Below, piece after piece: positions 17,899 through 41,308 of a stretch of 41,663 bases of DNA. Position numbers and translations under genes: made by a program. The stretch is from a virus. The notes beneath the pieces are model-generated. The model ran no database searches, was not told the origin of the DNA, and saw only the letters and a list, made by a program, of their open reading frames with translations. How positions within the stretch are numbered: the stretch's first letter is position 1; each line of letters begins with the position of its first letter. The stretch lies in UHGV virus genome UHGV-0121576; one strand, written 5' to 3'.

Positions 17899-17909
17899 AG
17901 CGCCTCCCG

Positions 17910-19769: not shown

Positions 19770-19772
19770 CCC

Positions 19773-21092: not shown

Positions 21093-24773
<3,681 letters not shown>

Positions 24774-24799
<26 letters not shown>

Positions 24800-25319
24800 T
24801 CAGCAACCCCGGTATCAGTTCATCCAGCGCGGCTGCTTTGTTCATGGCTTTGATGATATCCCGTTTCAGGAAATCAATATGCCGGTTATCCAGCTCAGGA
24901 AAACGTCGCTGCACCGACAGAGGAATACCGTCGAGAATACTGGATATTTCCCTTGCTATACGCGACAGCACGAAAGTACAGAATGCGGTTTCCACCACTT
25001 CAGCCGATTCTTTGGCATTTTTCAGTTCTTGCGCCGTCGCCTGAGCACGAGTCAGGCGATGGCGCTCAAATTCAAGTGTTCCGGGGTGAAGATCTGCCTC
25101 GCTGGCTAGCCGTAATTCTTCAACCTCCCGGCGCAGCTTTTCGTTCTCAATTTCAGCATCCCTTTCGGCATACCATTTTATGACGGCGGCAGAGTCATAA
25201 AGCACCTCATTACCCTTTCCACCGCCTCGCAGAACGGGCATTCCCTGCTCCTGCCAGTTCTGAATGGTACGGATACTCGCACCGAAAATGTCAGCCAGCT
25301 GCTTTTTGTTGACTTCCAT
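24774..25319 (-). CDS. Nu1: Terminase small subunit Nu1
   Basis: MEVNKKQLADIFGASIRTIQNWQEQGMPVLRGGGKGNEVLYDSAAVIKWYAERD matches lambda Nu1 almost residue for residue as recalled. Confidence 0.9.
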
Positions 25320-25324
25320 TGTTC

Positions 25325-25520
25325 ATTCCACGGACAAAAACAGAGAAAGGAAACGACAGAGGCCAAAAGGCCTGTTTTCAGCACCTGTCGTTTCCTTTCT
25401 TTTCAGGGGGTGTTTTAAATAAAAACATTAAGTTACGGAGAAGAAGAACGGAAACGCCTTAAACCGGAAAATTTTCATAAATAGCGAAAACCCGCGCGCC
25501 TTCCGCCCCGTAGCCTGCCG
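25325..25520 (-). other. cos site in joined (uncut) form: cosB-like R-site/IHF region and cosN-equivalent (25497-25508)
   Basis: Reverse complement of 25380-25500 aligns with the lambda left-end sequence (CGCGGGTTTTCGCTATTTATGAAAATTTTCCGGTTTAAGGCGTTTCCGTTCTTCTTC...); the 12-nt overhang-equivalent reads GGGCGGAAGGCG. Confidence 0.7.
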
Positions 25521-25580
25521 GATCGCCGGAAAGGACCCGCAAAGGTGAGAATAATTATCACTTGCATTAATATCCAGCTT

Positions 25581-25749
25581 CTTCCACCATCGCACCGGAC
25601 GGGCGACTATGAGGGACAAAACCGCGCACCATAAACGCGGTAAAAACCCGGTGTGCATCGTTTTTGATTATTTCCGCACACTCGCGCAGAGGAGTTCCCC
25701 GTCGGGCTACGGTCATGGTTAATGCGGAAATACGGCGACGATGCAGCGC
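25581..25749. repeat. Direct repeat copy A (169 bp; last 113 bp identical to copy B)
   Basis: Seen directly: 25637-25749 is identical to 26587-26699; the 5-prime 56 bp are about 80 percent identical. Confidence 0.9.
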
Positions 25750-25869
25750 ATGATGTGTCAGGCTTGAATACCTTTATCCGTTAAAAGGGATATCAGTTAA
25801 GTTATCCCGTGCAGGGTATAAGCCATTATCAAAGCCACTCAGTAGCGAATGGCTTTTGTAATGGACTAT

Positions 25870-26466
25870 TTAATTAGTGATGCTGCGTGGCTTCATACAA
25901 ATTTCAGAAATATGATTCTTTTCGTCCAAATGATGCTGGACATCATTTTTATCATCACTCAACAACTCTGCTGTTAATACAATCCCTGCTGTCTCAGATT
26001 TCCAGGAAATGCTGATATCCTGATCATCTGCATCAACATCATATTTTATCGAGTAAGGACTAAAGCTACGTCCAACGAACGCATCATTTACCAGTACACG
26101 CCCACCCTGTCTGACCTGAAAGTCAACGCGCCCTGAAAGCTGATTTGCTGTTACAAGCAATGCCTTTTTTCTTTTTGTTTTATTGCTCATTGCCACCAAC
26201 TGTTCAGCCATCTCTCTTGTCACACTACCAGAAACTCTTTCTTGAATTTTCACAGAAAATTTTCTGGATGTAGTAGCATCGACATTAAAAAATCTGGATG
26301 TCATCAGGCAGTTATTAACAATTGGCATCAGCTCACTTACGATTGTAAAAAATTCCCGGTAAAGCTCATTTTGCTTTTCAACACACAGCTTTCCACAATC
26401 GTCCAGCTTACGCTCAAGAGCACTTAATCTTTCCATTATTGAATTAATTTTTTGCAACTCTTTCAT
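25870..26466 (-). CDS. Hypothetical 198-aa protein (AT-rich cargo gene, N-terminal coiled-coil), function unknown
   Basis: ORF from ATG with AGGAGG RBS (minus strand GTCAGGAGGTTTTGATGAAAGAG); codon usage is AT-rich against GC-rich flanks; the upstream in-frame 87 codons cross the repeat and palindrome and are rejected. Confidence 0.55.
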   Translation of the reverse strand: MKELQKINSIMERLSALERKLDDCGKLCVEKQNELYREFFTIVSELMPIVNNCLMTSRFFNVDATTSRKFSVKIQERVSGSVTREMAEQLVAMSNKTKRKKALLVTANQLSGRVDFQVRQGGRVLVNDAFVGRSFSPYSIKYDVDADDQDISISWKSETAGIVLTAELLSDDKNDVQHHLDEKNHISEICMKPRSITN

Positions 26467-26489
26467 CAAAACCTCCTGACAAAGATACC

Positions 26490-26507
26490 GTGCGACCACG
26501 GTCGCAC
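26490..26507. promoter_or_regulatory. sopC-like centromere palindrome GTGCGACCACGGTCGCAC (site 1)
   Basis: 8-bp inverted arms around a central AC; core GACCACGGTC is identical to the F sopC repeat core as recalled. Confidence 0.6.
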
Positions 26508-26530
26508 GCTCCTGAATACATGCCCTGTTT

Positions 26531-26699
26531 CTTCCACCCTCGCACAGGACTGGCGAGCATGAGGGACAAACCCGCGAATCATTAGCGCGGTAAAAACCCG
26601 GTGTGCATCGTTTTTGATTATTTCCGCACACTCGCGCAGAGGAGTTCCCCGTCGGGCTACGGTCATGGTTAATGCGGAAATACGGCGACGATGCAGCGC
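26531..26699. repeat. Direct repeat copy B (169 bp), bracketed by palindrome sites 1 and 2
   Basis: See copy A; exactly 950 bp offset. Confidence 0.9.
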
Positions 26700-26709
26700 G
26701 GTATTTAAT

Positions 26710-26727
26710 GTGCGACCACGGTCGCAC
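26710..26727. promoter_or_regulatory. sopC-like centromere palindrome GTGCGACCACGGTCGCAC (site 2)
   Basis: Identical to site 1, 220 bp away, same orientation. Confidence 0.6.
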
Positions 26728-26746
26728 ACGAGAAACAAAGAGATTT

Positions 26747-27058
26747 TTATGCTACAGAGGAACAAGCTGGCGGGTAATTCAGCGTAGTGAATACCGGCAT
26801 CTCCATCTTGTATGCGTAATGATACTCAGCAGTTGCTCCAGCAGACGCTTTCCAGCCAGGAAGCATCAAAATAGCATCAGCACAACGAAGCATTGCAAAG
26901 CAAATATCCATGTATTCACGTTGTGTCAGACCATTAGGCAAAGTGGCTGGATTCAAGACAGAGTGACCATGTCGTGACAAACGATCTGCCTCTTTATTAA
27001 AGGCGTCACGATTAAAGTTCTCATATCCAGTCATTGGCCCGGCAATATAAATTTTCAT
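26747..27058 (-). CDS. DUF4406-like protein (nucleoside 2-deoxyribosyltransferase-like fold), function unknown
   Basis: N-terminal MKIYIAGPMTG...NF motif typical of this family as recalled; sits between Rz and the cargo gene. Confidence 0.55.
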   Translation of the reverse strand: MKIYIAGPMTGYENFNRDAFNKEADRLSRHGHSVLNPATLPNGLTQREYMDICFAMLRCADAILMLPGWKASAGATAEYHYAYKMEMPVFTTLNYPPACSSVA

Positions 27059-27099
27059 TCACTATCCAACAAATTGAGTTCGTTTTTGATACAGAGGGA

Positions 27100-27558
27100 T
27101 TAATTCAGGCATTGCGTCTTGATGTATTCCTGCAAGTAGTTAACCTGCGCAGTTATCCTGTCGATCCCACTTCGGAGACGGTAATAATTGAGTTCAGCAT
27201 CTGCTGTAAGTCTTGGGCTTTCTCCATTGCCCATGCCGCTGGCTCCGGTCGTTGACTTTGCACAGGTGGCGGCGACTTGCAGGCGCTTACGCCCAGCAGA
27301 AACATCAGCACGGAGACTTTCGATAGTCGCGTTAGCATCAGCAAGCTCCTTCGTGTATTTTGCATCGAGCGCAGCAACATCACGCTGACGCTGCTGCATG
27401 TCAGCGATGGTGGCGGTCGCCTGCTTCAGCTCACTGACTTTTTTATCACGCTGTTCTTTGTAGGCGATGGCGTTATCACGGTAATGATTAACAGCCCACG
27501 ACAGGCAGACGATGATGCAGATAACCAGTGCGGAGATAATTGCGGTTACTCTGCTCAT
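27100..27558 (-). CDS. Rz: Spanin inner-membrane subunit Rz
   Basis: From internal Met [31 protein letters not shown] matches lambda Rz; start overlaps the endolysin stop. Confidence 0.85.
27153..27338 (-). CDS. Rz1: Spanin outer-membrane lipoprotein Rz1, embedded in the +1 frame of Rz
   Basis: Lipobox LLGVSAC followed by Pro-rich [16 protein letters not shown], entirely inside Rz. Confidence 0.7.
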
Positions 27559-28055
27559 TGCTGCCCCCACAAACAGACTTCACGCTCAATCTCACGGCGA
27601 GTCATCAGCCCTTTCCATTGCTTACCGCCAGCATATGTCCAGCGACGTAGTTGATCACATGCACCTTTGATATCGCCCTGGTTGATTTTGCGAAGAAGTG
27701 TCGATGTTCTGAAATTGCCTGCACCCACGTTGTAAACGAACGAGTAAAGAGCACCACGCGTTGTTTCCGGTATATCGACTTTGATGTACGGGTTAATTTG
27801 TCTGGCGACAGTAGCAAGGTCTTTATTCAGGAGAGCTTTGCATTCTGCTTCGGTATACGTTTTACCGAGCATAATGTCTTTTCCTGTATGCCCGTAACAT
27901 ACAGTCCATACACCAACGATGTCTTTGTAGGGGTTATGTCTCACACCTTCCAGACCATCGTTGCCGCTCGGACCAGAGATGAGCACAGATGCTATGGCAA
28001 TAGCCCCGCCACCAATAGCAGTTGCGACAGCTTTGCGTAATGATGACTGCATCAT
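27555..28055 (-). CDS. R: SAR (signal-anchor-release) endolysin, T4-lysozyme-like (GH24)
   Basis: N-terminal Gly/Ala-rich SAR segment [21 protein letters not shown] then [25 protein letters not shown]; matches phage 21-type endolysin as recalled. Confidence 0.85.
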
Positions 28056-28324
28056 ATTTCCTTCGGTGCTCTCTTTCCCAATTCACCAATAACCATCGCC
28101 GTGGCGGAAATATTATTGGCATCAGTTTTATCCAATATGTCCTGCAATATCTTCGTGCGCTTCATCTGCTCGCGTTTATTGAGCCGGTATGTAAGTACAC
28201 CGAGGATAATGCTGAACGCGACACCGATAATGAAGCCCCAATCCTGCAATGACAGGCTGGCAAAGAACGCAGTAAGACCAGCACTACCATAAGATGCGCT
28301 GCTGTATCGTTCATCCATCTTCAT
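28052..28324 (-). CDS. Holin (class II / pinholin-like) with MKM dual-start motif
   Basis: 90 aa, two transmembrane segments, charged C-terminus, immediately upstream of and overlapping the SAR endolysin gene. Confidence 0.65.
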
Positions 28325-28419
28325 ATCTCTTACCTCGCAATAGTTGCTGAGGTTTCGGCTTGGAAACTATACGGCGAGAAATAACCCCATCAAAAACGGC
28401 AGGGGAATATATTCTTCAG

Positions 28420-29541
28420 TTACTCAAATAACTTTTTCACTTCATCAACTGTCTGAAGATAACGTTCACCCTCAATCTCAATACCGATTGCCTGACGACC
28501 TAACTTCAGCGCGGCTTTAATAGTAGAGCCTGATCCCATAAAGAAATCGGCAACGATATCTCCGGGGCGGGAACTACTTTTTATAATATGTTCCATCATC
28601 GCTGCAGGTTTTTCACATGGGTGCTTGCCAGGATAATATTGCACAGGAGGAAACTCCCATACATCGGTATAAGGTACATCAGCAGTAACATGAAATGGGC
28701 GGCGCAAATTTTCATACTGAGCCTTCAAATCATCATACTGCTTCTTTACTTCCTCATAACGCAATTTCAGATCGCTATAACGCTTTTCATGTTCTGAATA
28801 ATCAACATTAAAAGGATATGGACACGGGACACCGAGTGAATCTGCCTTCCTGCGAAATAATTCGCATAGTTTATTAAAATCACTTAATGATGGAAGCCGC
28901 CACTGCGAATAAGAAAACCAGTGCGAACACATCTGCTTTCCTGTTGCTGAATTAATGTCTGCGGCTGATATATCTAACTGACGGCGAGCCAGCGAAAAAG
29001 CATCAATTAGTGGAGAAAAAATATTTTTTCTTAAATCTGCACATTTTGAAGCATAACCTGACTGACCTTTAGCATAACCTGACGCGCCGTAATGCTCTGC
29101 AAATAATATTCTTTCAGTGGCAGGAAAATAAGCCCTTAAACTTTCTTTATGACAACCGCGCCACATACCACTGGGTTTAGCCCAAATGATAAGGTTCAGA
29201 ACATTGAAACGGTCGCGAGTTAATAATTCAATTTTTGACGCAAGGCGAGAGCCGGTAAACATATACAGGCTGCCATTAGGGGCCAATATCCGCCAAAATT
29301 CTGCCAAAAATTCATCAATCCACCCCAAAAAGTCAGCATCGCTATCCCACTGGTTATCCCATGCGTTAGCCTTTACGCCGAAGTATGGTGGGTCTGTTGC
29401 AATCAAATTGACCGAGTTATCAGGGATGGTTTTGATAAATTGCAGAGAATCTGCGCAAACGAGTTGCGCGCCATGAATATTAGTGGTTTTGAACATAGCT
29501 ATTATTTTTTTGCCTGGGTAAGCTAACCCGGCGATGCGCAT
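28420..29541 (-). CDS. Orphan DNA methyltransferase (N6-adenine or N4-cytosine, beta class)
   Basis: Motif IV DPPYF near the N-terminus and motif I FFMGSGST near the C-terminus; no adjacent restriction endonuclease; true start may be the internal Met at about 29496. Confidence 0.8.
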   Translation of the reverse strand: MRIAGLAYPGKKIIAMFKTTNIHGAQLVCADSLQFIKTIPDNSVNLIATDPPYFGVKANAWDNQWDSDADFLGWIDEFLAEFWRILAPNGSLYMFTGSRLASKIELLTRDRFNVLNLIIWAKPSGMWRGCHKESLRAYFPATERILFAEHYGASGYAKGQSGYASKCADLRKNIFSPLIDAFSLARRQLDISAADINSATGKQMCSHWFSYSQWRLPSLSDFNKLCELFRRKADSLGVPCPYPFNVDYSEHEKRYSDLKLRYEEVKKQYDDLKAQYENLRRPFHVTADVPYTDVWEFPPVQYYPGKHPCEKPAAMMEHIIKSSSRPGDIVADFFMGSGSTIKAALKLGRQAIGIEIEGERYLQTVDEVKKLFE

Positions 29542-29631
29542 CGCGGGTGGGCTTTAGGTTCAGCCTATAGCTCTGGCATGGGTTGACCGCAGGACAAGCT
29601 GCAACTTGTCCTGCGCCCACTTTTCAGGCAC

Positions 29632-29655
29632 AAAAAAACCGCCATAAAGGCGGCT
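29632..29655 (-). terminator. Promoter-proximal intrinsic terminator in the late-operon leader (tR-prime-like)
   Basis: Minus strand GCCGCC-TTTA-TGGCGG followed by TTTTTTT, about 40 nt downstream of the candidate late promoter. Confidence 0.5.
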
Positions 29656-29691
29656 TGTTGGCTGTTGGGTACAAAAAACCCAACTTAACAA

Positions 29692-29720
29692 ACAATAACT
29701 AAAAACCGTAATTTTGCCAA
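29692..29720 (-). promoter_or_regulatory. Candidate late promoter (-35 TTGGCA, 17-nt spacer, -10 TATTGT)
   Basis: Sigma-70-like hexamers read on the minus strand, 20 bp downstream of palindrome site 3. Confidence 0.35.
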
Positions 29721-29739
29721 GCTTTTTCGTTTTTGTGCT

Positions 29740-29757
29740 GTGCGACCGTGGTCGCAC
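29740..29757. promoter_or_regulatory. sopC-like centromere palindrome GTGCGACCGTGGTCGCAC (site 3, opposite orientation)
   Basis: Same arms as sites 1 and 2 with central GT; flanking CT and AG extend the symmetry to 22 bp. Confidence 0.6.
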
Positions 29758-29762
29758 AGTTT

Positions 29763-29990
29763 TTAGAAAGTTGCCTGCTTATATTCATCGGTCAAAGAAT
29801 ATCGACCAGACCCGCTACGCTTTGCAACCCCAAAACAGATCATCTGTTCGATGATAAATTCAACGGCAGCTTGACTCAAAAAACAGGCTTCGCTTAACTC
29901 TTTCAGGGAAATGCGTGGGTATCCACGCATAACACATTCCACACTCAGGGCCGCTTCAGTCATATTTCCACGAATTTCATTAATATTCAT
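29763..29990 (-). CDS. Hypothetical 75-aa protein (possible small DNA-binding protein)
   Basis: ORF only; last gene before the late-promoter leader. Confidence 0.4.
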   Translation of the reverse strand: MNINEIRGNMTEAALSVECVMRGYPRISLKELSEACFLSQAAVEFIIEQMICFGVAKRSGSGRYSLTDEYKQATF

Positions 29991-30003
29991 AACGCCTCTC
30001 TAA

Positions 30004-30243
30004 TCAATCTTGAAACTGGAAATCAACATCAGCCATAAAGCGGTTCAACTCAGCCAGTTTTGGCCCCATAGTCCCAACTAAGCGACCAGCCAGTCGGTCT
30101 GCCAGGTTGGTACTGTTGAAACCATATTCCTTTTCGAAACGTTCAACCTTCTGCCACAACTCATACAGTTCGTTAGCTATCTCCGCAACGTCGTCGCGCA
30201 TTTTTTCGTTACCTTGATAATTCATAATATCCTCCAAATTCAT
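30004..30243 (-). CDS. Hypothetical 79-aa acidic protein
   Basis: ORF only; divergent from the toxin-antitoxin promoter region. Confidence 0.4.
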   Translation of the reverse strand: MNLEDIMNYQGNEKMRDDVAEIANELYELWQKVERFEKEYGFNSTNLADRLAGRLVGTMGPKLAELNRFMADVDFQFQD

Positions 30244-30390
30244 ATAGTTAGTGGGTTATTGCCCCTCAATGACACGAACTGTAACTCTGCCAAACGAACA
30301 CATCCAGTGTTATTTTTCACTTTTTAGTGAAATTTTTAATTTGCGCTTTTTTCTTGTTTTGGTGTATTTTATGGCTATGGAGGCTATAAT

Positions 30391-30702
30391 ATGTTTAACG
30401 TGATAACCCACCCTGCAGCACTGGATGAACTGCTTGAACTACCAGATGATTTGCGAGGTCGCATGACCAGATTAATTGAGCGACTGGAGAAGGAAGGCAA
30501 CAAACTGAAGATGCCCCATAGCCGTGTAATAGGTGGAGGGCTTTTTGAACTACGAGTAGGGGATAAAAACATCGCAAGAACGCTGTACGCCTACGCGACT
30601 GGTAACGAAATTTATCTATTGCATGCATTTGTAAAAAAGACACAGAAAACACCGGTGAAGGCTATCGAAATCGCCAGAACTCGCCTGAAGGAGATGAACT
30701 GA
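30391..30702 (+). CDS. Type II toxin, RelE/ParE superfamily, Gp49-like (HigB-like)
   Basis: LFELRV...ARTLYAYATGNEIYLLHAFVKKTQKTP motif typical of the phage Gp49-like toxin family (named after N15 gp49) as recalled; followed by an overlapping HTH gene. Confidence 0.7.
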   Translation: MFNVITHPAALDELLELPDDLRGRMTRLIERLEKEGNKLKMPHSRVIGGGLFELRVGDKNIARTLYAYATGNEIYLLHAFVKKTQKTPVKAIEIARTRLKEMN

Positions 30703-30989
30703 TGAAAGCGAAAGGCATCCCGTTTAACGAAGTAAAAGAAAAACTTCTCAACACTCCAGAAGCCATCAAAGGATATGAAGAGGCCGATAAAGAGCTGGAG
30801 ATGGTCGAAATGTTATACGAAATGAGGGAAAGAGCAGGTTTAACGAAGTCAGCTCTGGCTGAACGAATGGGATTGCGCCCGTCAGCTATCAGCCGCCTGG
30901 AAAGCAATCCTTTAGGGGCAAGCATGAAAACTTTATCAAAATATGCCCAAGCATGCGGTGCAACGATTAATATTAATGCCGTCTATTGA
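30702..30989 (+). CDS. HTH XRE-family antitoxin (HigA-like)
   Basis: HTH LTKSALAERMGLRPSAISRLE; start overlaps the toxin stop (ATGA). Confidence 0.7.
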   Translation: MKAKGIPFNEVKEKLLNTPEAIKGYEEADKELEMVEMLYEMRERAGLTKSALAERMGLRPSAISRLESNPLGASMKTLSKYAQACGATININAVY

Positions 30990-31006
30990 TTAGACCCTTT
31001 TCGCTA

Positions 31007-31026
31007 CCCCGTCCAGAAGGGCGGGG
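31007..31026 (+). terminator. Hairpin after the toxin-antitoxin pair (weak T-tract)
   Basis: CCCCGTCC-AGAA-GGGCGGGG stem-loop between convergent genes. Confidence 0.3.
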
Positions 31027-31032
31027 TGTGTA

Positions 31033-31251
31033 TCAATGATGCAAACACTCAACAGCAATAACTTGTTGGCAATTCTGAGCAATCTCCCGCGACATACTAA
31101 CAAGTCGTGAAATCTCGCCAAGATGCAAGCTGGCTTCTGGAGAAGCCAGAGCAACGCTAACCAGATCTAAAACGGCGTCGATGTCTTTTAGGTTTGATCC
31201 GAGTTCTTCAAGAGTTGATACAGGTGCTTCAGTCATTGAATCTAATACCAT
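31033..31251 (-). CDS. Hypothetical 72-aa acidic protein
   Basis: ORF only; preceded by a 240-bp non-coding region. Confidence 0.35.
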   Translation of the reverse strand: MVLDSMTEAPVSTLEELGSNLKDIDAVLDLVSVALASPEASLHLGEISRLVSMSREIAQNCQQVIAVECLHH

Positions 31252-31493
31252 TTAATTAAAAAAGGTTATTTGATACTGTATAAAATTACAGGGTAAAACT
31301 CAAATTTTATAGCCAACTTTCAATGGATTAACTGGTTAAATATCTTTGTAGTCCGATACTTATGTTCCCTTCCTACGCCTCGCCCAACCACTTTCAAAAG
31401 CCCATCACCACCATCAGAAAAGCTCTTTTCGCTCCGTTTTCGTATCATTTCAAAAAGCAATGCCTTTTTGTCCATTTATCCCTCCGTGACCAG

Positions 31494-31820
31494 TCACACT
31501 TTGAGCGCAAGTTTCAGCCTCGTGGTTGTAAGGTGGCATGAGCCTTCACCATCAAAAATGCATTCTGAAACAGGCATTTTTTGACCACATCGCGGACAAG
31601 TAGTAGATAGCTGTTTCTGCAACTCCTTATAGTTTTTCCTGATCAGCAGTCCGATGACTTCGTTCTCTGAATATGGAACTCGCCCTGGTCTACGCAATAC
31701 ACAAATTTCCCCCAACATACGTAACTCGTCAGGTTCCAGAATCCAGTCACGTCTTGATGTTCCTTCCTTCTTCAACCGTTCCCTGCGTCTTCTTTGCCGT
31801 TCTGCCGGTGTCAGCGCCAT
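31494..31820 (-). CDS. Hypothetical protein with N-terminal arginine-rich motif and C-terminal CxxC...CxxxxC cluster
   Basis: MALTPAERQRRRRERLKKEG then CPRCGQKMPVSECIFDGEGSCH; last gene of a five-gene overlapping cluster. Confidence 0.45.
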   Translation of the reverse strand: MALTPAERQRRRRERLKKEGTSRRDWILEPDELRMLGEICVLRRPGRVPYSENEVIGLLIRKNYKELQKQLSTTCPRCGQKMPVSECIFDGEGSCHLTTTRLKLALKV

Positions 31821-31835
31821 AAATCCTCCTAAAAA

Positions 31836-32597
31836 TTACTTAACCCAATTAACTACACCGCCAGCGGCCACAACCGCTTTTTCACAGTCACGCTCATATC
31901 TCAAAGGTTGAAATACACCATCAATAAAATATTTATCTCCACCACATGCTGCTGGAAGTGAAACAGAAAACTGAATACGACCATCATCTGGCATTTGCTC
32001 ACTACAGCTTATCCAACCATCCGGAGTTACCGGATAGTTGCCCGATAGCGCATTACGCAATCGCTCCAGCTTCACGTATTCCTGAACCCTGTTTCCGTCG
32101 CATGCCTGAAGCCATTGCGCAGCCTTTTGCGCATCAGTGTGAAAGGCACAAGTGCGACCGTCATCAAATTGCATTTCGTAGAGGTCAGCAACTTGTTCAA
32201 ACTGCGTGTGTTGTGACTTGTAAGTTTGGCTTACAGGTTCGGCACCATGAAGCATGGCGGCGCGGCAGGAGTTCCAGCCTCTCACCTCTGCAATAGCGGC
32301 AACAGCATCGACCGCGTACATTTTAAGAGGGTTAGGCATTGTTTTTTCTTCAGGTACTACTGGCACTGGAGGGGCGGCATAAACAGGAATAACGTCCGCT
32401 TGCTCTTTATTGCTTTCATCCGTTAAAGCCCAGAATAATTTCCCGGCCGGATGTTTGAAAATATAAGCAACTGGATCTGCTTCCAGCGATGCCAGTGCAA
32501 TTTCATAAGCACGGCGCTCAATATTGTCTCGAACGTCCAAGCTGCCTATGCGCTCTTTGATTTCTTTAATCAGTTCTTTGTCGGTAAACGTGATCAT
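31836..32597 (-). CDS. Hypothetical phage protein (about 253 aa from the internal Met MITFTDKELIKEIK)
   Basis: Start overlaps the upstream stop (TAATG); no confident family assignment. Confidence 0.45.
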   Translation of the reverse strand: MITFTDKELIKEIKERIGSLDVRDNIERRAYEIALASLEADPVAYIFKHPAGKLFWALTDESNKEQADVIPVYAAPPVPVVPEEKTMPNPLKMYAVDAVAAIAEVRGWNSCRAAMLHGAEPVSQTYKSQHTQFEQVADLYEMQFDDGRTCAFHTDAQKAAQWLQACDGNRVQEYVKLERLRNALSGNYPVTPDGWISCSEQMPDDGRIQFSVSLPAACGGDKYFIDGVFQPLRYERDCEKAVVAAGGVVNWVK

Positions 32598-33175
32598 TAT
32601 GCTCCAGCCTCCGGTGCTTTCGGCATTACTGCCCAATGAGTGATATTGACGTTTTCAAGATCCCCGACCTGAAATGTCCACTGCCAGTCTCCGGTTTCTT
32701 TTTGTCCCCAGGTGTACCAGAGAGAACGCCAGCCAATCAGCCAGCCTTCTCCGTTAGCATCGAATAACAAAACACTTTCATTTGCAGGTGGCAGTTCAGC
32801 TGACACTGGTGTTACTTTGTTTCCCTGTTCTACAATTCGCTTTCTTGCAGCTTCCAGCTCAATAGACAATTTTTCCAACTGCTCTTTATGCTTTTTGTAT
32901 TCCTGATATGCGTGCCAGGACTGTCCTTTGCGCACGCTTTCAGTAATATCAGCAACCTGCTCTGGAGTTAGCGTAGTCAGTTGCTGGGCTGGAAAAATCA
33001 TTACTTGTCCGGAATCCCAGTCAAAACCAGCCTGAATTGACTGAACATCAACTGATGGTGTTGAACCAATGCTACCTGGTGAATGAACAACAATCGTTAC
33101 ATTCATATCGCAACGCTGGCTGTGTTTGTTGGACAAGATACGATTCACCAACTCAGAAAATTTGGAAAATTTCAT
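32597..33175 (-). CDS. Hypothetical phage protein (192 aa, Trp-rich C-terminal domain)
   Basis: C-terminal GWLIGWRSLWYTWGQKETGDWQW; overlapping start/stop with neighbours. Confidence 0.45.
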   Translation of the reverse strand: MKFSKFSELVNRILSNKHSQRCDMNVTIVVHSPGSIGSTPSVDVQSIQAGFDWDSGQVMIFPAQQLTTLTPEQVADITESVRKGQSWHAYQEYKKHKEQLEKLSIELEAARKRIVEQGNKVTPVSAELPPANESVLLFDANGEGWLIGWRSLWYTWGQKETGDWQWTFQVGDLENVNITHWAVMPKAPEAGA

Positions 33176-33462
33176 GCGGATTCCCCTTTCTCTGCTTTCT
33201 CCTGTCGGAACATCATGATCATCAGATCACCTTTGGTTGCCACTCTGACTGTTGTGCCTGGTTCAATGCTGTTAAGTTCAAATGCGTCATAGAACGCTTC
33301 TAATGCCTTCTGGCGTAGCTCCTGTTTGCGCCGTTTTTTCCACTGTTTTAGAAAAACAGTGGCCGCCCACTTCCCTGCGCTGAACATGATGTAAAAATAA
33401 CCAAACAGGGCCAGACCAGTATTCAGAACCGTATCGACCGTCATTGTTGTGTCGATATTCAC
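33172..33462 (-). CDS. Small single-pass membrane protein
   Basis: Hydrophobic segment LALFGYFYIMFSAGKWAATVF followed by basic stretch. Confidence 0.45.
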   Translation of the reverse strand: MNIDTTMTVDTVLNTGLALFGYFYIMFSAGKWAATVFLKQWKKRRKQELRQKALEAFYDAFELNSIEPGTTVRVATKGDLMIMMFRQEKAEKGESA

Positions 33463-33881
33463 CGCACCACCTCATGAAAATTTCCCTGATAAAACGCCAG
33501 TACACGCTGCATAACTTCGCTCTTCCGACAATCGTGACAAATCATGTTCAAGCGCCTGTCGTAACGACGTATTTCTCCGTCAGGTAATGACCAGATAAGG
33601 TCTGGATCAACCACTACCGATTTCTTCGGCTTTACTCTTGATAGTTTTTTACGGGCGTTTTGCCAGTCCTTGCGTGCTTGTGCAGACAGAAATATCCCGG
33701 AGCCAGAGATATACAAATCACCACTGGCAGCAAGCTCTCTTGATAAACGACTAACAGCACACCGGCTAATACCAGTTTCATCCGCAAGTTGCCTAACCGT
33801 TCCTCGTCCATTCAGGCGCACGAGTTCCACAATTTGTTTATTCAGTTCTTCCCTCTGTTCTGGTGTAAAAGCCTTTGCCAT
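33459..33881 (-). CDS. Putative winged-helix DNA-binding protein
   Basis: N-terminal GTVRQLADETGISRCAVSRLSREL HTH-like segment. Confidence 0.5.
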   Translation of the reverse strand: MAKAFTPEQREELNKQIVELVRLNGRGTVRQLADETGISRCAVSRLSRELAASGDLYISGSGIFLSAQARKDWQNARKKLSRVKPKKSVVVDPDLIWSLPDGEIRRYDRRLNMICHDCRKSEVMQRVLAFYQGNFHEVVR

Positions 33882-34480
33882 TACGATTCTCCTTGCCCTT
33901 TTACAAGACGGGAGAAAATTGCGGATACATATTTAGCCTGATGAATAGCATCAGCCAGGGCATTGTGTCGTTCGCCATCAAATGGCATATCTTTTTTAGG
34001 ATTAAAACCAATAAACTGACCAAGATTAACGATTGTTCGAACATCCTGATCATTAAAATATTCCCACGGACAGGCTAAGCCAACGCGCTCATAAGCACCG
34101 CGTAAAATTACATTATCGAACGTTGCTCCATTTCCCCATACTTTCAACTTTTTTAAATTACATGCATGGAAAGTAATAAAGTGTGATAATTCAAAAAGTG
34201 CATCCTTAATATCAAGGGCATCATTAGTACAAATAGCGGCTCTGGCTTCCTTGCTCTGTTTCAACCACCATAAAATGGTATCACCATCGGCGATACCACC
34301 ATTCAACATCGAGCTTCTGAGATTCACTGGCACATAAAAAGTAGGACCTAATTCCTCACTTTCTGGAGAAAAAAACACTGCCCCGATAGAAACAATTGCA
34401 GCACATGTATTAGTACCCATTGTTTCAAGGTCAATCATTACATCAGACCGTTTCCTGTCGTAAATAATCTGATTAGTCAC
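33881..34480 (-). CDS. DEDD-type 3-prime to 5-prime exonuclease (DnaQ-like)
   Basis: N-terminal MIDLETMGT motif and C-terminal H...ALADA motif typical of DEDDh exonucleases. Confidence 0.65.
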   Translation of the reverse strand: MTNQIIYDRKRSDVMIDLETMGTNTCAAIVSIGAVFFSPESEELGPTFYVPVNLRSSMLNGGIADGDTILWWLKQSKEARAAICTNDALDIKDALFELSHFITFHACNLKKLKVWGNGATFDNVILRGAYERVGLACPWEYFNDQDVRTIVNLGQFIGFNPKKDMPFDGERHNALADAIHQAKYVSAIFSRLVKGQGES

Positions 34481-34503
34481 GAATAATTATCCTCAACGTT
34501 TAT

Positions 34504-34707
34504 CTATACCCAAAACTTCTGTTGATATGTTCTGGATGGTTTTGGCGCTCTTTCTGATTCAGGTAAATGAACATAAACGCAATATCCATCACCTAAAAAA
34601 TCAGAACGAACAACCAGAACTTTCTTACCACGCCGCCGATAAGTATCTGAAAGACGCTCTGCTTCATCATGCGTCATCGGCCCCTGCTTAAATGGCGTTA
34701 TTTTCAT
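34504..34707 (-). CDS. Hypothetical 67-aa protein
   Basis: Start placed at the internal Met because the upstream MRPWSH codons are the palindrome itself. Confidence 0.35.
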   Translation of the reverse strand: MKITPFKQGPMTHDEAERLSDTYRRRGKKVLVVRSDFLGDGYCVYVHLPESERAPKPSRTYQQKFWV

Positions 34708-35008
34708 TTTCTTGTGCGACCACGGTCGCACCCTCTCTGATTTCCAAGTAACGCTTAATCCAAAGATTTTCTATATGCTTATTACCTGGCTGATTTGATA
34801 AATACCAATCGGCAATTACAGACTGCTTATTACTATCTGGTCGTGTCCTGTAACCACAAGTTGGACACCAGATAACATATTCATTTCTTACCCCCGAATA
34901 CCTTAATTCTGGCTTCGACGGTTTCCTGAACATAACTTGTTTACAAAGGCAGAATGGCACTTCCTGCCCGATGGCGTTTGATGATTTCACTGCGCTTCTC
35001 CGCCGCAT
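34688..35008 (-). CDS. Small Cys-rich zinc-ribbon protein (possibly Lar-like)
   Basis: CLC and WCPTCG pairs; overlaps the end of the upstream ORF, so the start is uncertain. Confidence 0.35.
   Translation of the reverse strand: MRRRSAVKSSNAIGQEVPFCLCKQVMFRKPSKPELRYSGVRNEYVIWCPTCGYRTRPDSNKQSVIADWYLSNQPGNKHIENLWIKRYLEIREGATVVAQENENNAI
34714..34731. promoter_or_regulatory. sopC-like centromere palindrome GTGCGACCACGGTCGCAC (site 4)
   Basis: Identical to sites 1 and 2; lies between the Q-like/zinc-ribbon genes and the downstream operon. Confidence 0.6.
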
Positions 35009-35651
35009 TTAATAATGCAGTTCGATTTAAGCTCAGACATCGCGACTTAATTAAAAGCCAGCGTTCTTTATAATCTTGTCTCCAGCTATCAATAGATATA
35101 TTCAGTAGAAAACTCAGATGCCTGTCCTGTTCTCTCTCATCAACTGCCTCAGCACACGTAAGTTCTGACTTAACCTGCTGTGCCGCGTAATAAATCAATT
35201 TTCTCATGGCTTTTTTCGTGGAGGCCTTCATTTTTTTAAACCCGCCACCCGAATGCGCAACCAGAAAATCAAGCCATAACCACTGACAAACAATCACATC
35301 ATTGTTGTAGTCAGGCTTGCATCCGTAGCAATAATAAAGCCAGGCTGATTCCTCGTTATTCAACTGACCAATAGCCCTGCGCCAGCTGGCGCTCTGAAAA
35401 TCAATATCAGTGAGCAACATTGATGATTGTTTAAATGTTTTGCCCTGGTGGAATCTAACCGGCTCAGCAGGAACAGACACTTCGTATGAGTTATCATCAC
35501 CTACACTGATTGACCGGACTGGTTTATTGTTAAAGCGTCCTGATCTGCCTAGACGCATCTGCTCAAGCTGGACCTCTAGGATGCCACGCTGGCGATAATG
35601 AATATCAGCCAATGCCGTGGAGACGCAGCTGCGTATATACTCAAGCTCCAC
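34941..35651 (-). CDS. Putative late regulator (antiterminator Q-like by position only)
   Basis: 236-aa ORF immediately downstream of the Cro-like gene, as in the N15 cro-Q arrangement; no sequence motif confirmed. Confidence 0.3.
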   Translation of the reverse strand: MELEYIRSCVSTALADIHYRQRGILEVQLEQMRLGRSGRFNNKPVRSISVGDDNSYEVSVPAEPVRFHQGKTFKQSSMLLTDIDFQSASWRRAIGQLNNEESAWLYYCYGCKPDYNNDVIVCQWLWLDFLVAHSGGGFKKMKASTKKAMRKLIYYAAQQVKSELTCAEAVDEREQDRHLSFLLNISIDSWRQDYKERWLLIKSRCLSLNRTALLNAAEKRSEIIKRHRAGSAILPL

Positions 35652-35889
35652 GCTTACGGCTCTCCTTAATCGACTGCTTTACCCGCCGAGTTGTAAAGTC
35701 ACTCTTCAGCTTGTAAGCAGTACGAACTTCAATATCACTTTGCCGCAATGAAGGAATCTCTCCAGCGGTTAACCATTGGTAAACAGCACCGGGTGTTACA
35801 CCTACCCCAGCCGCTGCTTTTTCTACACTGCCAAAGTGGCGAATAAGTTCTTCTGGTTTCATGCGGTTATTATAAGCAATAAATCGCAT
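35641..35889 (-). CDS. Cro-like HTH regulator
   Basis: HTH AAGVGVTPGAVYQWLTAG; divergent from the CI-like repressor gene. Confidence 0.6.
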   Translation of the reverse strand: MRFIAYNNRMKPEELIRHFGSVEKAAAGVGVTPGAVYQWLTAGEIPSLRQSDIEVRTAYKLKSDFTTRRVKQSIKESRKRGA

Positions 35890-35931
35890 TTAAAGCCAGC
35901 TATAATAAATAAATTTTATAGCCAGCTATAA
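35890..35931. promoter_or_regulatory. Candidate operator pair in the cro / repressor divergent region
   Basis: Two 16-bp near-palindromes TTAAAGCCAGCTATAA (35890-35905) and TTATAGCCAGCTATAA (35916-35931), 26 bp centre to centre. Confidence 0.45.
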
Positions 35932-35953
35932 GAAGATCATTTATGATTAAGCT

Positions 35954-36550
35954 ATGAAAACACGAGGCGAACGACTGAAAGCACGCCGTTTAGAGATGAA
36001 GCTGACGTTGCGAGAAGTTGCTGAGGCTGTCGATATCTCTATTGCAGGCGTCCAAAACTTAGAACGTGGCGACGTAATGCCGTCACTGGAGATAGGTATT
36101 GCCCTGGCTAAATGCTTACGCAAGCCAGTGCATTGGGTGCTGTATGGGACAGAATATGACCCTGATCGCATTCCTGTTATTGGCACAACTGAAAGTGGAC
36201 CTGATGAAGAGTGGAAGCCAGGACAGGTTCCAAATACTGAGCGATTCCTGCCATTCATCAGCCAGCGCAATACTGTTTATGCGTTAACTATCAGCAATCT
36301 GGCGCAGGGAAACTATCAGCCTGGCGATTTTCTCCTGGTCGATTCTGCGCTGGAACTGGTCCCCGGAGAGGATGTTCTGGTTCGTGATACTGCAGGAAAT
36401 ATCACCATCCAGCGCCTGGCCCGTTTTGATGATGAAAATTACTATCTGGACGGAACAAATTCACAACGCGCTATCTTCAGGAAAAGCGATCTTGAATTTG
36501 TTCACCAAATAGTCGGAACGATCAAATCATTCATGGTTGAGGGTAGATGA
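35954..36550 (+). CDS. CI-like prophage repressor (HTH XRE plus LexA/S24-like C-terminal domain)
   Basis: N-terminal HTH LTLREVAEAVDISIAGVQNLERG; C-terminal PGDFLLVD...VEPGEDVLVRD aligns with the lambda CI C-terminal domain; located upstream of repA. Confidence 0.75.
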   Translation: MKTRGERLKARRLEMKLTLREVAEAVDISIAGVQNLERGDVMPSLEIGIALAKCLRKPVHWVLYGTEYDPDRIPVIGTTESGPDEEWKPGQVPNTERFLPFISQRNTVYALTISNLAQGNYQPGDFLLVDSALELVPGEDVLVRDTAGNITIQRLARFDDENYYLDGTNSQRAIFRKSDLEFVHQIVGTIKSFMVEGR

Positions 36551-36651
36551 CTTAATACGGGGTTTATTGTTTGCTGTAAATCTGGTTTAATGCAGAGCAT
36601 ATGTTCTGTGGGTTGACTCAGGTTACAGCAGCAGAAAAAAGACGAAAAAAA

Positions 36652-36680
36652 ACCCGAGTCGGCAAACTCGGGTCCTTTTC
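36652..36680. terminator. Hairpin between the repressor gene and repA, with T-tracts on both strands
   Basis: CCCGAG-loop-CTCGGG preceded by AAAAAAAA and followed by TCCTTTTC. Confidence 0.35.
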
Positions 36681-36795
36681 AGGAAGCAGCCACAGTAACG
36701 CGACGGATTCCGTCAATTCAAGATGCGTTTATTGTGGCTGCTCCTGCGGATTTTTTCAACCCGAAAAAACATAATTCGCATGGAATGGCTAAAAA

Positions 36796-39700
36796 ATGAC
36801 ATTAAACGATTTCTATGCGGATCGCTTTGGCAGCGATCCGTTCTCGCTAATTGAAGCAGCACGGGATGAACTAACCGAGCTGGCACAGATGGCTGGTATC
36901 AACTGGTCTGCCTGTTCCGACAACATCCAACTCAACCCTCGCGGGGGTGTTGAGCGTTACTCTTCATACAATAAAACATCCCCAGAAGCTCTCGAAAAGA
37001 GCCTCAAAGGACGCGTAGAAATTTACTCCCGGCTGGAACACAGCAAAGGGATTGATTACCCGTTCATTAACTTCGTCCATAAAGGCAGCGATGCTGGCTC
37101 ATGGAGCGGTTTCTCCTTCCTGTTTTCTGAATATCGCCGTGAGCAACAACGGAATAATGCGACCGTGGTCGCACAACCGGAAGAAGAACGGGCAAGAATA
37201 GAACGTCAGGCCGAAGCACGTCGTCGCCGTGAAGAACAAAAACGAATTAATGACCTGAAAAACAACCAAATGGACCATGAACGTTTGCTGGGATGGCTGG
37301 CATTCCACAGTGCTTGGGAACATGCTCCTGCAGAAGACGGCTCATGGCCATATGCGATTAAAAAAGGTATTCGTGACGTTTTTAATTCGTGTGATGTGCG
37401 TCGCGTGACCAGTCACGACAGCGCAAAATGGAGCAGGGGGCCAACCACGTATATGGCTATCCCTCTGGCTCACCTGGACGGTCGTTACGATGGTCGTATT
37501 GTTGGTTGGCAGCGAATCGACAAACAAGGTGGAAAATACCAGACCAGCGCCGTAACCAGCGGCGATTTCGTCGGTGCCTGCTTTGTTATCGGTGAGCTGA
37601 AAGGGGCGCAAAACATCGCTGTTACAGAAGGTTTTGCTACTGGTGCATCCATCTGGCTTGCCACGAAAAAAGATAAACGCTTTGACGCTGTGGTTGTCGC
37701 TGTATCCGCTAACAACATGGTTCATGTTGTGGAACAACTGGTAAACATGTACCCGGCGGCAAAAATCACCTGCGCACTGGATAATGACCGGAAATCAGCT
37801 ACAGAAGGAAAAGGGAATACCGGCCTGCGGACTGGCTATGAAATCTTATCGAAATTCAACGATGTCCGCTGCGTCTATCCAACTTTTGAAGACGATCCGC
37901 AAATGGAGTGCAGTGACTTCAACGACCTGCACAAACTACGTGGACTTCGTGAAACAGCACGTCAACTGTTTGCAACTGCAAACCGCCTGAAAACTGGCAC
38001 TGATTTGCTATCTCTGACGCTCAACCGCCTGAAGACAATTAAGCGGGATAACCGTCGTACTTTTGCCAAAGAGCTGCTGAGAGCAGTGGATATTGGCATG
38101 CTAACCTGTCCGGTTCCTAACAGTCCGTCAGACTTATTTAACATGTTCTGCATCGTCCTGCGTGAAATTGGGCTGGAAAATATCTATCGCGCTACGGTAA
38201 AAGACCACATTGCCCGTCGCCTGAATAAAAAGTGCCGTATTGCCCAGGCTCCGCGCTCATTCAGCGAACGAATAACTGATCCCAATAAACGTCCTCAACA
38301 TATCACCTATAAGCGTTTTGAAACTTCGGTAATGACCGATGACGTCCTGAAGTATGTGCAATCACTACAGGGGATAGTCATCGTTCGTGCTGGTATGGGT
38401 TCCGGCAAATCTACTGGATTGTTACGACCTTTAATGCATAGCTCAGAACGTGGTATCTCTGTTGCTCACCGTGTTTCCCTTATTGGTGGCCTGTGGGAAA
38501 TGATGACAGAAGGAAAAGGTGTAAAAGCCGATATCCTGCACTATCAGGACCCTGGCTATCAGGAAATGGCTCCATACGCCAGTAAACTGACCATCTGCAT
38601 AAACTCGATTGTTAAAAACTGCTGGCAACCATTGATGCGCCAGCACGACTATTTTGGCTTTGACGAGGCCACGCAAGGGCTACGTGCCGTTCTTTCCGGT
38701 CGGGCTATGGAAAACCCGGTGGCTGTATTCAATACGTTAATTGACGCGCTGGCCAGAACGGAACAACACCCAATAATGGTGGATGCTGATGCGAACGATC
38801 TGCTGGTTGACCTGGCTGAACTGGCTATGAAACGCCGTGAAGAACTAGGTTTACCGGCATGGCTGCAGATCCACGTAATTGAATTACCTGTTGATGTTCG
38901 CAACCGCGAAACAGGTGAGCCAATCCGGGTTTTTTATACAGAAAAAGATCGCATTATGACCGAGGTGGTGAAAGCTGTATCGAATGGCGAAAAAATCATG
39001 TTGGCCACCGACAGCTCCACCTTTGCAGAAGATGTGACCGCCACCCTGAGAATGCATTTTCCTGGTAAGAAATTTCTGTGTGTAAACCAGAAAAACAAAC
39101 CAGAGCCAGAAGTTGAAGCATTTACCAATCAACCGAAAAAGATGGTCAAAAAATACGACGGCCTGATTTATAGCCCGTCTATTTCATCCGGTGTGTCGAT
39201 TGAGCAAAAACATTTTGACCGTCATTTCGGCATGTTCTGTGGTGAAGTTGTACCCAGCGACGCAGTGCAAATGCTACGCCGCGACCGTACAGCAAAAGAA
39301 TTTATTATCGGCTTTGATAAAGCTCGCGCAAAACGTGAAACTGACCCGCAAAAAATAGAACGAGCATTCGCCCAGGCATTGCTTGCTACCGCAGGCATGA
39401 ACGGTGAACTGACGGATGTCGTTTTCGATGGCGACCGTATATCAATGGGGGTGGCCAATACCGACTTTACCAGGATGAAAATTAAAGCAGCCGCAATTGA
39501 AGCGTCTGCGCGTAACGACTACGCCAGCAACATGATCTGCATCATGCACAGCGACGGTTATAAGGTATCGCCGCTGGCCACCGATTATGCTGCGAATGAT
39601 ATCGGTAAAGATCTGCGTAAAGAAGCGCGGGATATTGTGTGGGAACAGACACTGGATCTGCATCTCAATACAGAAACTCCACAAGAATCAGAGCGTGAAG

Positions 39701-40791: not shown

Positions 40792-40975
40792 TCAGTGGAT
40801 ATTATCTTTGTGTCTCTTGCTTTGTGTGTTCCAGCAATGGTTTTGGTTCATAGATCGAAAGTCTCACAAGGAAAACATGAAGGCCAGGAAGGCGATGTTT
40901 CGTGGTGAACAACTCGCGCAGACTTATCGTATGTGGAAACGCTTCTATCGTGATTTTTCGGTGAACGGGGAGTAA
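40784..40975 (+). CDS. Small hydrophobic protein translationally coupled to repA
   Basis: ATG overlaps the repA stop (TATGGGTAA); hydrophobic WILSLCLLLCVFQQWFWFI. Confidence 0.35.
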   Translation: MGNQWILSLCLLLCVFQQWFWFIDRKSHKENMKARKAMFRGEQLAQTYRMWKRFYRDFSVNGE

Positions 40976-40979
40976 AAAT

Positions 40980-41306
40980 ATGTCTACTACTGCATTTTTG
41001 GACAAACTTGATTACCGTCAGCTGCAGTTCTGCCGGGATGAATGCGATCGACGCATTAAGGCTATCCAGGAGGAAGAAAAAAAGGTCGCCTGGGCTGTAA
41101 CAGATCGTGGCCTTATCTTTGGCTGGTTCCGTACGGAGGATTACCTGAAAGCAGTGGAATTATTGGCGCGTAAGGCTGCTGAGCGTTGGGAACGAGCCGA
41201 CAAGGAAAACCCGGAGACGAAGTATGAACTGAATCTCTACATCGAGGGCAACCGTCTACCATTGTCAGAGTATAACGCTTTGTTTGCTGATGGTGAGTGG
41301 GGTTAA
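40980..41306 (+). CDS. Hypothetical 108-aa protein
   Basis: ORF only. Confidence 0.45.
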   Translation: MSTTAFLDKLDYRQLQFCRDECDRRIKAIQEEEKKVAWAVTDRGLIFGWFRTEDYLKAVELLARKAAERWERADKENPETKYELNLYIEGNRLPLSEYNALFADGEWG

Positions 41307-41308
41307 AA

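Follow-up and report, generated by a model that had tools for sequence, protein, structure and literature searches.

In the linear phage-plasmids N15 and phiKO2, the genes cro, Q and a Lar-like gene are followed by a slot (from Q/gene 41 to gene 46 in N15, genes 41-45; genes 39-44 in phiKO2), and downstream of it lie gp46, gp47, a RelE/ParE pair, gp50, gp51 and the late promoter. Here we analyze the same operon position, between the same flanks, in UHGV virus genome UHGV-0121576, a stretch of 41,663 nucleotides that we refer to as the window. Five minus-strand genes at 31494-33881, encoding proteins of 140, 96, 192, 253 and 108 amino acids (aa), had been described in a reading made from the letters alone (the sequence-only reading) as an overlapping cluster of unannotatable proteins, laid out like an accessory defence or anti-defence module. 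We consider it highly probable that these genes are instead a mosaic of catalogued phage accessory genes occupying a swappable slot in an early operon, and that they do not form a dedicated five-gene defence system.

The best DNA matches of the region are ~45-kb plasmids of E. coli, E. fergusonii and E. albertii, among phages it is best matched by Escherichia phage YDC107_1, a member of Ravinvirus, the genus of N15, and in distant BLAST comparisons the flanks align with N15 and phiKO2; by these matches the window is assigned to an E. coli N15-like (Ravinvirus) linear phage-plasmid. The content of the slot is different: N15 has a DnaQ-type exonuclease and gp42-44, and phiKO2 has a DnaQ-type exonuclease and a DNA methyltransferase, all unrelated to the genes of the window, where the slot holds an Rv2179c-type exonuclease, DUF977, DUF4752 and two DUF551 proteins. 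What the window has in common with N15 and phiKO2 is gp46 with its flanking genes and, at the profile level, the N-terminus of the 253-aa protein: in all three elements, the gene that immediately precedes gp46 has matches to common PHROG families (phrog_660/60).

The families found here are those of the lambdoid exo-xis/'ea' and nin regions (lambda ea22 and ren; the Ea22 variants of Stx phages; mEp460 gp26-29), namely the Rv2179c-like exonuclease, Ead/Ea22-type mosaics with DUF551 (the Ea22_V2 type, PMC10834534), DUF4752 and DUF977/Ren. Those lambdoid accessory regions are expressed early, with overlapping codons, tight packing and high mosaicism. They lie in the pL operon or between P and Q, whereas the genes studied here follow Q in a linear phage-plasmid.

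Co-occurrence and packing of the five genes

We searched IMG/VR with DUF4752, DUF977 and gp46 as anchors, and then compared eleven proteins of the window with 209 loci by tblastn. In the gp46-anchored loci, the backbone running from Q through the Lar-like gene and a 75-aa open reading frame (ORF) to gp46 is found in 45/49, and a gp47-like ORF also in 43; only 13-16 of the 49 carry the Rv2179c exonuclease, DUF977, DUF4752 or Ea22-type genes. All five genes are present at full length in only 2 of 48 gp46-anchored loci, the exact 253-aa version occurs in only 1 of 48, and the position of the Ea22/DUF551 genes takes at least six arrangements among 17 such loci. With the other two anchors, the 80 DUF4752-anchored loci have DUF977 in 18, gp46 in 17 and, to one side or the other, a close-by relative of the 192-aa protein in 68; DUF4752 appears in only 10 of the 80 DUF977-anchored loci, most of which either lack the remaining genes or show nothing beyond relatives of the 75-aa ORF or of the 253-aa protein. 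Some piece of the 2.6-kb region turns up in 633 plasmid records and 391 phage records, but coverage reaches 80% or more in just 5 of the plasmid records and in none of the phage records. Thus the independent assortment, together with the different content of the N15 and phiKO2 slots, indicates that the five comprise one backbone gene (gp46), one half-backbone mosaic and three cargo genes, and no co-inherited module.

That the five are real genes follows from their family matches (four of the five proteins pass a Pfam gathering cut-off, and each of the five has a PHROG match) and from the occurrence of an identical 192-aa protein on 103 public contigs. Their close junctions, as the sequence-only reading had described them, are also confirmed, with overlaps of 1-4 nt and one gap. 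Successive genes, from the 140-aa to the 108-aa gene, meet in GTGA (4-nt overlap), in ATGA (4-nt overlap), in TAATG (1-nt overlap) and across a 15-nt gap with AGGAGG, and a Shine-Dalgarno-like motif stands at all five starts. What did not hold is the limit of five: the same coupling reaches the exonuclease gene upstream, which overlaps the DUF977 gene by 1 nt (TAATG), and the gp47-like ORF downstream, after an 18-nt gap with GGAGGG. Overlapping junctions also occur in the terminase, lysis, toxin-antitoxin and cro/Q genes, according to the annotation of the 99.5%-identical plasmid pEC12401-3. Because the packing extends past the five genes and is common in this phage genome, tight spacing is a general property of the genome and no mark of a five-gene unit; start and stop codons overlap here as they commonly do in closely packed phage genes, and not because the five proteins form a machine.

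These results bear directly on the proposal of a single co-translated system for defence or anti-defence made up of all five genes, in which a DNA-binding sensor or regulator, a membrane effector and their partners would act jointly. Such a system would account for the tight start/stop coupling, for the mixture of DNA-binding, membrane and other proteins, and for the variable region near Lar-like and methyltransferase genes, yet the coupling is generic in the genome, the co-occurrence data already largely refute the proposal, the N15 and phiKO2 slots hold other genes, and gp46 belongs to the conserved backbone and has no relation to the cargo. In addition, an operon that is probably silent in the lysogen (see below) is a poor fit with prophage-encoded defence. 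A search of PADLOC-DB v2 found no defence-system component, only a weak generic helix-turn-helix (HTH) match (CasR, E 0.003) and a DEDDh match for the neighbouring exonuclease. We therefore regard a single system as extremely improbable. The sequence-only reading was right that these are accessory genes and not core replication or recombination genes; its idea of a single co-functional module is not supported. It had expected the module idea to fall if each protein proved to have a known replication or recombination function conserved in N15 relatives; the proteins do not map in this way, and the module idea fails for a different reason.

Families of the five proteins

The proteins had been called unannotatable, but profile searches place all five in catalogued Pfam or PHROG families. 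Sequence searches of the PDB gave no significant match for any of the five, NCBIfam gave no useful names, and no RNA family turned up when the whole window was scanned against Rfam.

The 140-aa protein belongs to DUF977 (PF06163, 101.4 bits against a cut-off of 22.1, E 5.4e-29), its residues 1-135 matching profile positions 1-133 of 134. It also matches several HTH profiles, in agreement with the winged-helix protein proposed earlier, and the winged helix is N-terminal. The family phrog_142, 'Ren-like exclusion protein', is matched almost equally by this protein (4e-42) and by lambda Ren (1.6e-41), but direct BLASTP between the two aligns only a 20-aa C-terminal motif at 50% identity. In lambdoid prophages, DUF977 homologues lie directly after the replication genes, which is the position of lambda ren; here the gene lies after Q, the Lar-like gene and the exonuclease gene, and not after replication genes. 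BLASTP against N15 and phiKO2 showed that the DUF977 protein is absent from both. Lambda Ren interacts with Rex proteins and is transcribed with the replication genes (bioRxiv 10.1101/2021.04.19.439022), and by analogy the DUF977 protein may act like Ren. A literature search for 'LygF', the label of the DUF977 gene in phage PhiR46_1, returned nothing relevant.

The 96-aa protein is a member of DUF4752 (PF15944, 136.9 bits against a cut-off of 27, E 2.5e-40; phrog_667 at 1e-41), a narrow family of 159 clusters from Escherichia, Salmonella, Shigella and Hafnia only. An alignment shows conserved hydrophobic residues 13-38, followed by KQWKKRRK and a small conserved C-terminal domain. It had been read as a single-pass membrane protein; the hydropathy of the segment is marginal (Kyte-Doolittle 19-residue maximum of 1.33), and a membrane anchor is plausible because the hydrophobic N-terminal segment is conserved and followed by a basic stretch. 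The DUF4752 protein is thus small and, judged from its alignment, probably membrane-anchored.

The 192- and 253-aa proteins are mosaics. In the 192-aa protein, an N-terminal module and a central, putatively helical segment precede a Trp-rich DUF551 domain (PF04448, residues 124-189, profile positions 5-68, nearly the full profile), and its PHROG matches are phrog_6026 (N-terminal), phrog_583 (C-terminal) and phrog_368, the last being common to lambda Ea22 in the N-terminal/central region. In the 253-aa protein, the N-terminal module (phrog_60/5117/660) is joined through a variable centre to a DUF551 domain that is divergent (residues 194-234, covering only profile positions 1-41 of 68); the protein matches phrog_60, 5117, 660, 3323 and 924. 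N15 gp45 matches phrog_660, 924, 60 and 3323, and phiKO2 gp44 matches phrog_660, 60 and 5117, so that the N-terminal module of the 253-aa protein is placed by profile in the same families as these two products of the gene just upstream of gp46. Both proteins had been described as Trp-rich, which is true of the first (9 W, 4.7%) and not of the second (5 W, 2.0%).

The mosaicism is evident in close relatives. The N-terminal ~125 aa of the 192-aa protein recur, at 81-82% identity, in many proteins that have PF13935 or PF04448 C-termini instead, and gp60 of the P1-like phage Ro157c2YLVW joins the same N-terminal module to a C-terminus like that of lambda Ea22. Plasmids that are 95-99.5% identical elsewhere show replacement or deletion inside the two Ea22-type genes, with the centre of the 253-aa gene (32023-32466) exchanged or lost: in pEC12401-3 window positions 32050-32466 are replaced, an E. 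fergusonii plasmid is without 32023-32247, and YDC107_1 and PhiR46_1 are without 31986-32815, leaving a single 219-aa fusion of the 192-aa N-terminus to the 253-aa C-terminus. In published work, Ea22 is built of modules and its C-terminal domain can be exchanged; DUF551 is among the alternatives, in the Ea22_V2 type of Stx phages (PMC10834534). The Ea22 proteins of lambda and Stx phages bias the lysis-lysogeny decision toward lysogeny (PMC10834534, PMC7093339). At the level of sequence, the mosaicism of the 192- and 253-aa genes matches this modular picture. The two proteins nevertheless differ from Ea22: neither matches PF13935 (Pfam Ead_Ea22) at E≤0.1, and the C-terminal K/R-G-E tripeptide of Ea22 (PMC7093339) is not present, the proteins ending in ...EAGA and ...NWVK. 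YfdS of the E. coli CPS-53 prophage, which is also prophage-encoded, has DUF551 in common with them and appears to carry other N-terminal modules; its phenotype is indirect only, sensitivity to H2O2 on deletion, and it is part of a yfdQRS-mediated inhibition of replication initiation (PMC4776307).

The same gene types, with 1-4 nt overlaps, are found in the pL 'ea' region of mEp460, in the pL accessory region of Salmonella P22-like prophages, downstream of the O/P replication genes in another prophage, and beside pmgS in a P1-like phage. A Salmonella prophage contig (AAGKIT010000005.1, locus L222, 5728-7005) encodes a 425-aa protein in which a dATP/dGTP pyrophosphohydrolase (PF04447) is fused to DUF551; a DUF4752 gene and an Ead_Ea22 gene lie immediately upstream of its gene. 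DUF551 is thus shown to be portable as a C-terminal domain, and an enzyme too can carry it.

Several observations weigh against the reading of the five genes as a mosaic of separate accessory genes. The compared loci are the closest relatives of each query and partly redundant (contigs recur), with no phylogenetic correction, although this redundancy should inflate co-occurrence and not deflate it. Both DUF551 matches lie barely over the Pfam cut-off of 22 bits (23.7 bits for the 192-aa and 22.7 bits for the 253-aa protein), and the assignment of the promoter rests on synteny with N15 and phiKO2. DUF4752 stands next to an Ea22/DUF551-type gene in 68/80 loci and in 6/6 independent prophage contexts, so that this sub-pair may be functionally linked; the DUF977, DUF4752 and DUF551 proteins may also share a pathway.

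The adjacency raises the question of whether DUF4752 and the neighbouring, putatively oligomeric Ea22/DUF551 proteins are a functional pair, for example in tethering or regulation at the membrane, with the other genes unrelated to it. Besides the 192-aa-like neighbours in the DUF4752-anchored loci, Ead_Ea22/DUF551 genes are among the close neighbours of DUF4752 in the six lambdoid/P22-like contexts and in one P1-like phage, and in at least four of these cases one of them abuts it directly, the overlap being 4 nt; the narrow DUF4752 family is found only where such mosaic genes occur. The linkage could also result from co-residence in one accessory region of prophages that are close relatives (≥63% identity). 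Gene order varies, with the Ea22-like gene upstream in some loci and downstream in others, and 12 of the 80 loci have no detectable 192-aa-like neighbour. We consider a dedicated pair unlikely, and favor the mosaic of separate accessory genes.

The 108-aa protein is the backbone gene product of the five. It is 79% identical to N15 gp46 and 81% to phiKO2 gp45 over 108 aa, matches phrog_536 ('transcriptional regulator') at 4.7e-32, is without a Pfam family, and keeps its position upstream of gp47 and the RelE/ParE pair, with synteny in 45/49 loci. Homologues were collected by a word-indexed search (27 close clusters) and by an exhaustive profile search (98 representatives of ~105-120 aa). The family alignment shows a conserved basic N-terminal helix ('AERK..QR.R'), a conserved middle block ('L.L...E...L...C..R....PY...EYI..LIR.D') and a C-terminal cluster C-x2-CG-x2-LP-x-gC-x7-C, here C75-x2-C78-x8-C87-x7-C95, in agreement with the Arg-rich N-terminus and conserved Cys cluster noticed from the letters.

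AlphaFold2 with a 12-sequence alignment gave an unusable model (predicted local distance difference test, pLDDT, 52.7), which was replaced by one based on a 57-sequence alignment from an exhaustive hidden Markov model search. In this model the 108-aa protein has the strand-helix-helix arrangement of the ribbon-helix-helix (RHH) fold, and the model thus shows gp46, at the fold level, as an RHH protein with a Cys4 zinc-finger tail. Compared with the RHH regulators of the CopG/Arc/MetJ type, it has an extra basic N-terminal helix and the zinc-finger-like CxxC-x8-C-x7-C tail. On this model, gp46 would be a DNA-binding protein whose RHH dimer regulates transcription. When repeats in 29500-31900 were searched for an operator, no candidate site for gp46 emerged. 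Kinship with DksA/TraR, suggested by borderline PDB profile hits (YbiI, TraR, E 0.009-0.016), was rejected on Cys spacing (CxxC-x8-C-x7-C in gp46 versus CxxC-x17-19-CxxC) and on the absence of a PF01258 match, that profile finding 0 of 57 family members even at E≤10. Since the downstream partner of gp46 resembles a winged-helix HTH protein and no toxin, the two do not make a toxin-antitoxin pair.

Operon setting and neighbouring genes

On the minus strand the gene order is cro, Q, Lar-like gene, 75-aa ORF, exonuclease, DUF977, DUF4752, 192-aa, 253-aa, gp46, gp47-like ORF and a 72-aa ORF; past the last of these come the convergent RelE/ParE-HTH pair on the plus strand, gp50- and gp51-like genes, and then a palindrome, a promoter-like site and a strong terminator (Table 1). 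This last group (29757-29636) marks the end of the early-right region holding the five genes, and a terminator scan found no convincing internal minus-strand terminator in the operon. Because the layout matches the annotated late promoter, terminator and synteny of N15 and phiKO2, the five genes can be placed, by synteny, between Q and the late promoter in what would be the CB-repressed cro-Q early-right operon. In the proteome of a lysogen of the Klebsiella telomere phage NAR688, nine phage proteins were detected, including the cB-like repressor and the RelE/ParE toxin, and none was encoded by the genes between Q and the toxin-antitoxin pair (PMC12042878). By analogy, this agrees with an early-right operon that is silent in the prophage state. 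The 'gp46' listed in that proteome was considered as an N15 gp46 orthologue and rejected: under NAR688's own numbering it is the cB repressor.

Table 1. Positions of the five genes and of neighbouring features in the window.
Feature	Position	Strand	Role or remark	Basis
140-aa DUF977 winged-helix gene	33459-33881	-	cargo gene; ATG start	
96-aa DUF4752 gene	33172-33462	-	cargo gene; GTG start	
192-aa mosaic Ea22-type gene, DUF551 C-terminus	32597-33175	-	cargo gene	
253-aa mosaic gene, divergent DUF551 C-terminus	31836-32597	-	ATG start; TTG-started mechanical ORF is 266 aa	
108-aa orthologue of N15 gp46 / phiKO2 gp45	31494-31820	-	backbone gene	
cB-like repressor	35954-36550	+		annotation of near-identical plasmids and N15
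cro	35641-35889	-		annotation of near-identical plasmids and N15; ORF list
Q-like antiterminator gene	34941-35651	-	upstream in operon	annotation of near-identical plasmids and N15
Lar-like restriction-alleviation gene, 106 aa	34688-35008	-	backbone gene	phrog_6795 at 1.5e-45
Rv2179c-like 3'-5' exo(ribo)nuclease gene, 199 aa	33881-34480	-	same cargo block	PF16473, 228.5 bits
Shortened N15 gp47 homologue, 51 aa	31320-31475	-		BLASTP against N15 gp47 and phiKO2 gp46
RelE/ParE toxin and HTH antitoxin pair	30391-30989	+	convergent with the early-right operon, which it interrupts, as N15 genes 48/49	
18-bp partition-site palindrome	29740-29757	-		palindrome search; equivalents annotated in N15 and phiKO2
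Late-promoter-like site	29720-29692	-		promoter scan; equivalents annotated in N15 and phiKO2
Strong terminator	29656-29636	-		terminator scan; equivalents annotated in N15 and phiKO2
DNA methyltransferase	28420-29541			

The Lar-like gene, an anti-restriction candidate just outside the five-gene stretch, shares 68 nt with the 3' end of Q, read in another frame, and is kept in 45/49 gp46-anchored N15-like loci; its matches to PF14354 and TIGR03655 fall below the cut-offs. With this gene, the methyltransferase and a member of the Ren PHROG, the neighbourhood has an anti-restriction character. One could view the slot as an anti-defence island, in which several genes, each on its own and in company with Lar and the methylase, counter the immunity of the host or of a resident prophage: the Ren-family protein would oppose Rex-like exclusion, the exonuclease would act on nucleotide or RNA signals, and the DUF551 proteins would be directed at unspecified systems. 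We find this account doubtful. It is consistent with the putative early expression position, with the fast turnover of content between near-identical backbones, with the Lar-like gene directly upstream, with the phrog_142 membership that the 140-aa protein shares with the Rex-interacting Ren, and with the fusion of DUF551 to dATP/dGTP pyrophosphohydrolase in prophages (PMC10834534). Nevertheless, none of the five matches an experimentally verified anti-defence protein (no anti-defence database was searched), the direct similarity to Ren is the 20-aa motif only, and the only tested homologue type, Ea22, affects the lysis-lysogeny decision and not immunity.

Among the neighbours, the exonuclease is 71% identical to gp26 of the lambdoid phage mEp460. 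The gp47-like ORF is 51 aa long here, compared with 73 aa in N15 and 80 aa in YDC107_1: ~96 nt of the YDC107_1 ORF are absent from the window and from the closest plasmids, a loss that removes most of an apparent small winged-helix domain.

The 18-bp palindrome GTGCGACC(AC/GT)GGTCGCAC, annotated in phiKO2 as a putative plasmid partitioning (centromere) site, occurs in five copies (26490-26507, 26710-26727, 29740-29757, 34714-34731 and 37157-37174). One copy lies just upstream of the late-promoter-like site, another, with 1 mismatch, lies inside repA, and a third, between the Lar-like gene and the 75-aa ORF, overlaps the GTG 'start' of that ORF, whose real start is therefore probably the ATG at 34707. 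The five genes are bracketed by two of these palindromes. A 28-bp near-perfect palindrome (CGCAGGACAAGCTG/CAACTTGTCCTGCG, 29588-29615, 93% complementary, no spacer) between the late terminator and the start of the methyltransferase gene could be a regulator binding site or an RNA hairpin. The GC content of the structural block (5001-25000) is 54-61%, versus 40-50% in the early/accessory/replication part (25001-41663), a split that fits separate evolutionary origins of the two arms of the phage-plasmid.

A working model and its meaning

We have described above a locus in which a conserved backbone encloses variable cargo, and the following model of separate accessory genes would account for it. 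Transcription of the operon would start at the cro promoter, which CB represses; the genes would stay off in the plasmid prophage and come on early once the phage infects or is induced, as the synteny with N15 and phiKO2 and the NAR688 proteome suggest. In the N15-like backbone, which runs from Q, the Lar-like gene and the 75-aa ORF to gp46 and gp47, the space between the two ends is a swappable slot, filled here with genes that also circulate in lambdoid and P1-like phages: the Rv2179c-like exonuclease, the Ren-family winged-helix protein (DUF977), the small, probably membrane-anchored DUF4752 protein and a pair of Ea22-type mosaics, in which N-terminal, central and DUF551 C-terminal modules are reshuffled between relatives. 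The products most likely act singly, at most as a DUF4752 and Ea22/DUF551 pair, and would serve as early factors modulating the host or phage development, by analogy with the pro-lysogenic Ea22 and the Rex-interacting Ren of lambda. From what is described for their homologues, the Ea22-type proteins may be oligomeric scaffolds that show the DUF551 domain to some partner and so may bias the lysis-lysogeny decision, while the gp46 orthologue would be an RHH/zinc-finger DNA-binding regulator belonging to the backbone.

A bolder version, which we hold to be decidedly improbable, would make DUF4752 (a small membrane anchor) and Ea22/DUF551 (a modular oligomeric scaffold with a swappable DUF551 targeting domain) an unrecognised two-part early module, exchanged among lambdoid, P1-like and N15-like phages to tune lysis-lysogeny or to counter host or prophage immunity, with the gp46 family separately an RHH-zinc-finger regulator specific to telomere phages.

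As a whole, the region is an ordinary example of the mosaic accessory regions long known from temperate phages of enterobacteria, and RefSeq plasmids with near-identical sequences already carry annotations for it. What the comparison adds is that N15-like phage-plasmids take the cargo of their post-Q slot from the lambdoid exo-xis/nin gene pool, together with a model-based assignment, at the level of the fold, of the conserved gp46 family to RHH and zinc finger, a family not covered by Pfam. The recurrent adjacency of DUF4752 and Ea22/DUF551 genes could guide work on these families.

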